Assembly: GCF_003334765.1 (NCBI RefSeq)
Contig: NZ_QOWT01000115.1
Reading direction: 5' to 3' (one strand)
Origin: Escherichia coli
GTDB taxonomy: Bacteria > Pseudomonadota > Gammaproteobacteria > Enterobacterales > Enterobacteriaceae
Length of the DNA stretch: 529 nt
The notes under the pieces are model-generated. The model was not told where the DNA came from and searched no databases. It saw nothing but the letters and a program-made list of their open reading frames with translations. Shown here in pieces: positions 1-529 of the stretch. How positions within the stretch are numbered: the stretch's first letter is position 1; every line of letters begins with the position of its first letter. Position numbers and translations under genes: made by a program.

Positions 1-10
1 ATCCCGCCAT
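1..10 (-). CDS. Probable 5' end of a downstream minus-strand gene running off the left edge (only M-A-G visible)
   Basis: Minus strand reads GAGGGA (complement of 18-23), 7 nt, then ATG (complement of 8-10), starting 21 nt after the TAA of the 95-aa ORF. This is typical operon spacing. Only three codons are visible, so the product cannot be assessed. Confidence 0.35.
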
Positions 11-17
11 CTGCGAA

Positions 18-23
18 TCCCTC
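18..23 (-). promoter_or_regulatory. Candidate Shine-Dalgarno (GAGGGA) for the downstream minus-strand gene
   Basis: Plus tccctc at 18-23 is GAGGGA on the minus strand, 7 nt upstream of the ATG at 10-8. Confidence 0.35.
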
Positions 24-31
24 AATATTTC

Positions 32-319
32 TTATTGCATCCCCCTGTGAAGATAATAATTGTCGCCCGGCATCCACACCACGTCCGTCATCCCAGCCAC
101 GAATAAATTCACCGCGTAAAGTCGCACTCGAAGAGCATCAGCCAACTGTTTCCTGATTTTTTCAGGTAACTCGTCGGCATCGCAGAAACAACAACGCTCG
201 ATCATGTTGAAAGCCGATTCGTAGAACTGTTTTTGCTGAGTGTCGCTGAGACAGGAAAAGAGCGACGTTACGATGATTTTATTAATTGCATTATCAAGTT
301 CTTTTTCATCAAAAGTCAT
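32..319 (-). CDS. Complete ORF encoding a 95-aa hypothetical small protein (MTFDEKELDNAINKII...WMPGDNYYLHRGMQ); function unknown
   Basis: ATG is the complement of 317-319 and TAA the complement of 32-34. An in-frame stop lies immediately upstream (complement of 332-334), so ATG is the first possible start. AGGAAA Shine-Dalgarno (complement of 326-331) sits 6 nt before the ATG. The translation has mixed, protein-like composition with an acidic N-terminus and four Cys (C-x19-CC-x-C). I do not recognise the family. Confidence 0.7.
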   Translation of the reverse strand: MTFDEKELDNAINKIIVTSLFSCLSDTQQKQFYESAFNMIERCCFCDADELPEKIRKQLADALRVRLYAVNLFVAGMTDVVWMPGDNYYLHRGMQ

Positions 320-431
320 TTGATTTTCCTTTTATGTATACGGGCTTAAAAGGATACCACCGAGCCTGAAGTGGTGAAAAGACAGGCACATAACAGCTAA
401 GTATTTTCAACCAGAGAGAATCCTTAGCGTT
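320..431. promoter_or_regulatory. AT-rich divergent intergenic / promoter region between the minus-strand small-protein operon and the candidate plus-strand gene
   Basis: About 40% GC (hand count over 320-420) against about 60% GC for 421-529. The best plus-strand sigma70-like pair is AAGACA (379-384), a 17-bp spacer, then TATTTT (402-407), which is weak. I found no convincing -35/-10 pair for the minus-strand ORF. Confidence 0.35.
326..331 (-). promoter_or_regulatory. Shine-Dalgarno / ribosome-binding site (AGGAAA) for the 95-aa ORF
   Basis: Plus-strand tttcct at 326-331 reads AGGAAA on the minus strand, 6 nt upstream of the ATG at 319-317. Confidence 0.55.
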
Positions 432-529
432 GTGGTGAATGCGGCTCAGCGTACGCGGGTTAAGGTTGAGGCTGACAGTCGACCTTCTGTGGATACCCAC
501 CCGCCTGGTGTGCAACCTTCGCCAGGCAC
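432..529 (+). CDS. Candidate 5' end of a divergently transcribed gene, GTG start, continuing past the right edge; N-terminus (M)VNAAQRTRVKVEADSRPSVDTHPPGVQPSPG...
   Basis: This plus-strand frame has no stop from 378 to the window end. The first possible starts are GTG 432-434 and GTG 435-437; there is no in-frame ATG. G is enriched at codon position 1 (about 14 of 32 codons), and the amino-acid composition is diverse. The start coincides with the AT-rich to GC-rich transition near 430. Weaknesses: the only purine-rich SD-like run (AGAGAGAA, 413-420) is 11 nt from GTG 432, and rare Arg codons CGG and CGA are present. Confidence 0.3.
   Translation, partial: MVNAAQRTRVKVEADSRPSVDTHPPGVQPSPG

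Follow-up and report, generated by a model that had tools for sequence, protein, structure and literature searches.

A short inverted repeat in an Escherichia coli prophage remnant lies within a divergent, pseudoknotted relative of the small RNA STnc100

STnc100 (RF02076), first seen in Salmonella, is a prophage-encoded small RNA (sRNA) of Gammaproteobacteria. A second prophage sRNA, PasD, occurs in enteropathogenic E. coli (EPEC) and is called EcOnc13 in enterohaemorrhagic E. coli (EHEC). STnc100 is one of the sRNA families most widely annotated in bacterial genomes, yet no function has been assigned to it (PMC9029176); in Stx2 phages, a copy is located 75 nt downstream of stx2, and that copy has been found in outer-membrane vesicles (PMC12370729). 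PasD1 and PasD2 of EPEC E2348/69 were reported as structural relatives of STnc100 by Zhu, Shabalina and Storz (bioRxiv 10.64898/2026.05.13.724894). PasD is about 172 nt long and was found by RIL-seq on Hfq, in which interacting RNAs are ligated and sequenced, and also by Northern blot; its RIL-seq chimeras and its UGUGAG seed map to the 3' ~50 nt, and its abundance is nearly unchanged in an hfq comparison (PMC8550237). These features fit a self-stabilising structured 5' body followed by a 3' seed. Here, we analyze a stretch of 529 nt of E. coli DNA (the window, at its full length), in which an earlier note had flagged an imperfect 8-bp inverted repeat at 462-486. Positions 428-529 of the window, on the plus strand, are the 5' four-fifths of a structured RNA of about 126 nt that is a divergent, 'type B' relative of STnc100 and PasD, and the repeat lies inside it.

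Many E. coli genomes have, between dacD and sbcB, a prophage remnant that matches the window with 100% identity; the locus of E. coli BE2-5 (L001) serves as reference, in which window positions 1-529 are 6001-6529. Searched alone against Rfam, the window returned only a chance match to cyano-S1 (E 4.9). With flanking sequence added, the Rfam STnc100 model matched L001 6399-6622 on the plus strand (42.3 bits, E 1.8e-7) and aligned the flagged hairpin onto one of its own hairpins. The match is missed in the window alone because the RNA is cut at position 529, the core ending at L001 6553, 24 nt beyond the window. Copies from the SfV, phiES15, L214, dicB-leader and e14 lineages gave no STnc100 match at the gathering threshold. 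Relatives were gathered by exact matches to either of two conserved motifs (in helix P5 or helix P2, see below) among viral contigs and metagenomes; a scan of species-representative genomes for the subfamily pattern gave only 2 loci, and a metagenome scan gave 117 and added the L214, L250 and L252 lineages. From 40 diverse representatives, 34, including canonical STnc100 copies, were aligned with MAFFT without fitting to a structure, and a covariance model, R1, was built. R1 matched L001 6428-6553 over all 120 model positions (86.9 bits, E 1.8e-20), window 428-529 over model positions 1-96 of 120, the 3' end being cut (40.1 bits), and 195 copies in the fetched phage loci at E up to 0.01. RNAalifold recovered helices P1, P2 and P5 with compensatory changes from the unfitted alignment of the 34 representatives. 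In the model-fitted alignment, compensatory changes occur in 18 of 26 model pairs, and the covariation score of 0.388 compares with 0.123 in shuffles (none of 500 reached it) and at most 0.128 when pairing partners were slid. The core architecture of P1, P2, P4 and P5, together with conserved junction bases, is common to this RNA and STnc100.

On the plus strand, the core opens with the 5' strand of P1 (GTTGTGGTG, 429-437), whose partner (CACCACAAC, L001 6545-6553) lies outside the window; the helix is predicted by RNAalifold, has compensatory changes at its outer pairs and is 99.4% paired in the subfamily alignment. The junction AAU (438-440) leads to P2, in which GCG-GC (441-445) pairs across the loop UCAGC with G(U)-A-CGC (451-456), A453 being bulged (pairs 441-456, 442-455, 443-454, 444-452 and 445-451). 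Covariation of P2 is strong, with CCC-CC...GG-A-GGG in canonical type A copies versus GCG-GC...GC-A-CGC in type B copies and with both sides changed in 13-19 sequences at three pairs. Pair 444-452 is G-U here, T452 standing where every other collected copy of the lineage has C (G-C). The pairing of P3 (GGGU, 457-460, with ACCC, 499-502) was read by eye from the sequences; the window lineage shares GGGU/ACCC with the L060 lineage, and the phiES15 and L214 lineages have GGGG/CCCC, which amounts to one exchange of U-A for G-C. P3 encloses a variable region (461-498) that holds the flagged hairpin. P4 (GCCUGGUG, 503-510, with CGCCAGGC, 520-527) closes the loop UGCAACCUU (511-519); compensatory changes are found at all eight of its pairs family-wide, and in the subfamily alignment pair 504-526 changes from C-G to U-A. 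A lone base, A528, separates P4 from P5 (CCGGG-AGGCA-CCCGG), which begins at position 529, continues outside the window and abuts P1. Downstream of the core follow a single-stranded linker (UUUAUGCUGUGUGUAGUCUU; L001 6554-6575 reads UUUAUGCUGUGUGUAGUCUUGG) and, about 12 nt 3' of P1 and likewise outside the window, an intrinsic terminator at L001 6565-6620 (GGCGGUACCAGC...GCUGGUACCGUCC, then UUUUU).

To this architecture belongs a pseudoknot that is strongly covarying across the family and is absent from the Rfam STnc100 structure line and from one published consensus description. In every branch, a few nucleotides 3' of P2 are complementary to the P4 loop, with sequences that differ by branch; among the 43 distinct duplex types, whose 5' strand lies 2-5 nt past P2, are CCAGTC/GACTGG, CAGTTAA/TTAACTG, ATCAGCA/TGCTGAT, GAACTGGCA/TGCCAGTTC, AGACTGACA/TGTCAGTCT and TGGTTAT/ATAACCA. 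The window duplex is AAGGTTG/CAACCTT, with 462-468 (AAGGUUG in the RNA) pairing with 513-519 (CAACCUU) inside the P4 loop by seven Watson-Crick pairs out of seven. The register of the duplex differs by 1-2 nt from branch to branch, which leaves no fixed columns to compare, and covariation was therefore measured with a permutation test of own against other loops: mean complementarity was 6.19 to the own loop versus 4.14 to the loops of other types, and none of 5000 permutations reached the observed mean. In the nearest outgroup, the lineage of Cronobacter phage phiES15, the duplex is AAGGCUG/CAGCCUU, and the change of U466-A515 to C-G is compensatory.

Type A copies pass the Rfam STnc100 threshold with 68-165 bits, have a clear sigma-70 promoter (TTGAC(A/T)-17-TAnnnT in a consensus scan) whose end is some 10 nt ahead of P1, as well as a terminator 25-45 nt past P1, and are commonly arranged in tandem arrays. 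Examples of such arrays, with copies about 240-480 nt apart, are L043 1337-1453, 1583-1696 and 1813-1932, where each of the three copies has its own -35/-10 promoter and terminator, and L006 6152-6279, 6415-6523 and 6636-6747, where the middle copy is degenerate (30.5 bits). The window RNA shares with STnc100 the closing helix GUGGUG...CACCAC, the GAAU junction, the bulged P2 hairpin with its U..GC loop, P4 before P5, the invariant P5 abutting P1, the terminator after it and a prophage home. It departs from STnc100 in its score (42.3 bits versus 68-165 in canonical copies), in P2 (GCGGC/GCACGC versus CCCCC/GGAGGG) and in the extra P3; moreover, it shows no sigma-70 promoter just 5' of P1 in consensus scans and lies in an early-left operon leader, unlike a stand-alone gene. 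Type B copies as a group have P2 of the form GCGGC...GCACGC and the added P3, fall below the Rfam threshold and occupy leaders of early operons.

Type B copies come in more than one setting. In the form found in the window, SfV and e14, the domain is followed by a linker, GCUGUGUGUAGUCUU, and then by the terminator. In the second form, the domain directly follows DicF, and 17-38 nt separate it from the start codon of the next gene, for example dicB (NF049927) or kil (NF008465); a further copy lies 60 nt 5' of an SfV orf32-like gene (phrog_204) with no DicF before it. In the Qin-type dicA-ydfABC-dicF-dicB locus, a type B copy of 77.7 bits is situated between DicF and dicB; the gap between DicF and the dicB start is likewise filled by type B copies of 76-82 bits at L329 1571-1700, L006 12011-12149 and L130 4492-4621, and 4073 of 5426 complete E. 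coli genomes contain the dicF-to-dicB region at 80% coverage or more. Like the window copy, the dicB leader is a type B domain in a repressor-controlled early operon of a lambdoid prophage. The two differ in order (terminator-domain-gene in Qin, domain-terminator-gene in the window), in the variable region and in the pseudoknot duplex, which is CAGUUAA/UUAACUG in the dicB leader. A study of dicBF regulation does not describe the structure of the domain (10.1101/2023.04.14.536235). The linker and 12-bp terminator of the window locus (L001 6554-6620) are themselves weakly DicF-like (19.4 bits, E 0.26), and in L131 and L157 the same linker and terminator directly precede type B copies, which points to a shuffling of modules between DicF-like sRNAs and the domain.

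Set beside PasD by description, the window RNA is likewise prophage-encoded and terminator-ended and would have the same layout of a structured 5' body and a 3' seed. Unlike in PasD, the linker contains no UGUGAG seed, and the copy lies near cI and xis-int, whereas PasD belongs to the late region, close to Q and lpxR. The putL and putR RNAs of phage HK022, which are cis-acting antiterminators, are also structured RNAs located just past the early promoter region of a lambdoid phage with terminators ahead, but they are about 70 nt long and consist of two stem-loops (PMC9378689). A put-like antiterminator was considered for the position past the repressor gene and was dismissed, as R1 found no match in the HK022 genome (L208) at E up to 0.01. 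Antitermination is further argued against because members of the family appear as terminated sRNAs.

The flagged repeat itself is exactly as the earlier note had described it. AAGGTTGA (462-469) pairs with TCGACCTT (479-486) over 8 bp around the 9-nt loop GGCTGACAG (470-478), the pairs being 462-486 A-T, 463-485 A-T, 464-484 G-C, 465-483 G-C, 466-482 T-A, 467-481 T-G (the single U-G wobble), 468-480 G-C and 469-479 A-T. As proposed there, an RNA hairpin can form on the plus strand, which is the RNA strand because the T467-G481 wobble would read as a C-A mismatch on the other strand; the G-U pairs in P2 and P4 point to the same strand. The view that the hairpin is not an intrinsic terminator also held, since no T-run lies 3' of it on either strand (CUGUGGAUACCC comes after position 486) and a terminator scan was empty at 462-486. 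When the window was dinucleotide-shuffled 2000 times, 26% of the shuffles held one or more stems of 8 bp or longer with no more than one G-U pair and a loop of 3-12 nt, with a mean of 0.41 per strand, and the real plus strand has three (327-354, 462-486 and 503-527). The earlier note had named a folding energy no better than that of shuffled controls and a lack of covariation or conservation as the outcomes that would speak against the hairpin, and this is largely what we found: z was -0.52 for 430-529 and -0.79 for 455-493, no better than shuffles, and the pairing shows no compensatory change among related sequences. Taken alone, the hairpin is thus real, yet unremarkable by chance measures.

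Its place within the domain gives it a second aspect. The 3' arm, UCGACCUU (479-486), is a second, lineage-specific partner of 462-469, and hairpin and pseudoknot are mutually exclusive because the 5' arm of the hairpin is also the 5' strand of the pseudoknot. The two were compared in an alignment of 19 sequences from the window lineage, its sister lineage and the phiES15 lineage, in which compensatory change was seen at none of the 8 hairpin pairs and at one of the 7 pseudoknot pairs, and in which 92.7% of cells form a standard pair in the hairpin and 98.5% in the pseudoknot. Hairpin pair 463-485 is broken in 7 of the 19 sequences, and 465-483 changes from G-C to G-U in the same seven; the sister lineage carries TCGATCCT or TCGATCAT at the hairpin arm. 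A homologous 8-bp arm was not found in the phiES15, L214, L023 and L130 lineages.

On balance, we lean towards a reading in which the flagged repeat consists of segments of a structured noncoding RNA whose native fold includes the pseudoknot, with the hairpin as an alternative or transient pairing and with a body followed by a 3' seed. P1 closes the domain, P2 forms its bulged hairpin, P3 encloses the variable region, the P4 loop reaches back from 513-519 to 462-468, and P5 abuts P1; the pseudoknot would then be the pairing that the mature RNA of this lineage uses in vivo. The local hairpin would represent a lineage-specific alternative in the variable region, occupying the place where other family members have a separate variable hairpin, or may pair transiently because its 3' arm is transcribed 27 nt ahead of the P4 loop. 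By analogy with PasD, the likeliest role of the domain is that of a stable, structured 5' body in an sRNA or leader, whose base-pairing seed would lie in the 3' linker. Several points weigh against this reading. The STnc100 score of 42.3 bits is below the curated gathering score of 47. The invariance of the P5 and P2 motifs is partly a product of how relatives were gathered, which leaves branches without these motifs unsampled, and the alignment behind the 18 of 26 pairs and the score of 0.388 was fitted to the structure. In the window lineage, 462-468 has both of its partners intact and without variation, so that the comparison cannot choose between them there. Nested folding favours the local hairpin, with all eight flagged pairs in the minimum-energy structure of the whole 126-nt core at pair probabilities of 0.59-0.88, and its duplex energy is -8.5 kcal/mol, that of the pseudoknot strands being -7 kcal/mol. 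In this genome, tail-gene remnants have taken the place of the phage region upstream of about window position 120, a consensus scan found no promoter-like site on the plus strand of the window, and no demonstrated role is on record for the 5' domain in any member of the family.

The folding results could instead mean that the local hairpin is native and stable here as a variable arm inside P3, giving a nested five-way junction in which the pseudoknot does not form. Beyond the energies, this explanation, which we regard as possible although the less probable one, draws on the invariance of both arms over 19 distinct variants of the SfV/e14 lineage from more than 100 loci and on the hairpin that other family members have at about the same place. 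It can also claim that, when the downstream domain was shuffled with its composition preserved, only 1.4% of the shuffles gave an equally good local complement to the pseudoknot strand, in a test chosen after the data were seen. However, the P4 loop retains a perfect 7-bp complement to 462-468, like that of every other branch, both pseudoknot strands change together in the nearest outgroup, and the sister lineage has two uncompensated substitutions in the hairpin arm while its pseudoknot strands are intact; the variable hairpin of other branches, moreover, does not use the pseudoknot strand. Two mutually exclusive partners of similar strength could also form a regulated switch, set by factor binding or by transcription speed, whose choice would alter the fate of the RNA, such as its stability, its processing or terminator read-through into the early-left genes. 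The 3' arm and the P4 loop GCAACCUU are near-copies of one another, the terminator lies close to P1, and the local complement is above the median in several other type B lineages (L250, p 0.012; L090, p 0.048; L165, p 0.06), with a combined p of 0.05 when the window and sister lineages are left out. The evidence that type B lineages in general have such a local competitor for the pseudoknot strand is marginal: the trend falls short of significance (p 0.16) when a roughly independent set of lineages is taken, type A members as a rule have no such competitor, and nested folding spuriously pairs the pseudoknot strands in many RNAs (mean 0.6 in both types). Neither a ligand or protein nor an expression platform overlapping P1 was identified, and we consider a switch rather unlikely. 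Quite improbable, in our estimate, is the broadest version of this idea, in which all branches (STnc100, the PasD-like RNAs, the SfV/e14 leader and the dicB and kil leaders) share a cloverleaf-like pseudoknotted recognition module and the flagged hairpin is the off-state of a switch that gates recognition and early-left expression. The likeness to a cloverleaf consists in the stacking of P1 on P5 without a spacer, 7 + 5 bp as in the acceptor/T-arm stack of tRNA, in the start of P2 three nucleotides past P1, and in an invariant GC of the P2 loop opposite the invariant AGGCA loop of P5. The module would then be more than a stabiliser, and its binder might be a processing enzyme, RNA polymerase, a chaperone or some other factor of the host or phage.

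Two functions that had been suggested for the repeat, a translational-control hairpin and a protein-binding dyad, fared worse. The hairpin does begin, as had been noted, about 30 nt into an open reading frame (ORF), position 462 being 30 nt past the GTG at 432, but the supposed coding region is probably no gene. A coding sequence is annotated there by the NCBI Prokaryotic Genome Annotation Pipeline (PGAP), and the copy in prophage e14 is named ymfH in K-12; PGAP itself, however, flags the ORF from 432 as a frameshifted pseudogene, and its 75-aa product has no PHROG or NCBIfam match. A 1-nt indel falls inside the ORF between sister lineages, and substitutions track the RNA helices as compensatory changes, not codons. 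In e14, ymfH (L209 4078-4393) overlies a copy of the domain (72.2 bits) with a decayed P5, CCGGG-GGCA-CCCGA; no NCBIfam match was found for its product, and the sole PHROG match covers residues 60-96, downstream of the RNA core. K-12 ymfH is probably not a protein gene, and we give next to no credence to translational control inside a real gene starting at GTG 432. Very improbable, too, is a DNA dyad for a phage protein, such as an operator or an Xis- or IHF-type site, although the repeat does have two inverted 8-bp arms set 9 bp apart and lies close to the repressor gene, in a regulatory region of the prophage. The half-site AAGGTTGA, allowing one mismatch at most, is at chance frequency, with 9 occurrences in 12.5 kb versus 9.6 expected and 11 in 10.2 kb of SfV versus 7.8 expected, and there is no operator array. 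Furthermore, the sister lineage has a mutated 3' half, T-G breaks the symmetry as DNA but is a valid pair in RNA, and in the SfV record the putative operator region is assigned to the interval between cI and cro.

We read the outcome for the flagged hairpin as deflationary, that is, as a minor lineage-specific pairing in a variable region. The surrounding domain with its pseudoknot is the more interesting result. The structured core of the STnc100 family extends well past the Rfam boundary, and this, together with the core pseudoknot missing from the Rfam structure line, provides a concrete structural model for the domain. In addition, early-operon leader copies of SfV/e14-type prophages are annotated as protein-coding (ymfH in K-12), which points to a recurrent annotation error.

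The same stretch is present in functional phages, including SfV, SfII, SfIV and ST64B-like phages. In SfV, the order is cI, terminator, orf33, RNA stretch, orf32, yfdQ-like gene, yfdR-like gene, xis and int, and the K-12 prophage e14 has the same layout; in SfV/e14-like prophages, the domain is thus located 3' of the repressor gene and 5' of the yfdQ/R...xis-int genes. Because the plus strand of the window holds no promoter-like site, we infer transcription of the window copy from relatives. The only promoter-like site that a consensus scan found between the cI terminator region and the RNA in SfV is 670 nt upstream of the RNA, a near-consensus TTGACA-16-CATAAT directly past the cI terminator (L207 4329-4356). 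On the strand opposite to the RNA, SfV also has an Rfam C4 antisense RNA (82 bits) that adjoins isrK (64 bits) at L207 2184-2372.

In L001, the annotation comprises a tail-protein pseudogene remnant, a hypothetical gene of 95 aa on the minus strand (WP_000141754.1, window 32-319) and the 'hypothetical protein, frameshifted' of PGAP on the plus strand from window position 432 (L001 6432-6751), which overlies the RNA; beyond it follow yfdR, two small genes, a helix-turn-helix (HTH) gene and an integrase. The 95-aa ORF matches phrog_3311 (E 9e-46), a family of unknown function, and the orf33 of the SfV record, on the opposite strand, overlaps it in part, so that the annotations conflict. At window 356-375, a hairpin (CCACCGAGCCTGAAGTGGTG) is followed on the minus strand by ATCCTTTTAA, with a terminator-like score; it forms the left edge of the block that is conserved with other prophages (from about L001 6357). 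A direct repeat of 22 nt with 73% identity (352-373, GGATACCACCGAGCCTGAAGTG; 491-512, GGATACCCACCCGCCTGGTGTG) is probably due to chance. Between the terminator and yfdR, L001 6617-6709 contains a long inverted repeat (AAAACAGAGAAGA...TCTTCTCTGTTTT). This repeat first suggested a retron msr/msd, a candidate that was rejected given the lack of a reverse transcriptase nearby and the clear match to an sRNA family. The segment L001 6571-6725 also occurs alone in many E. coli genomes.

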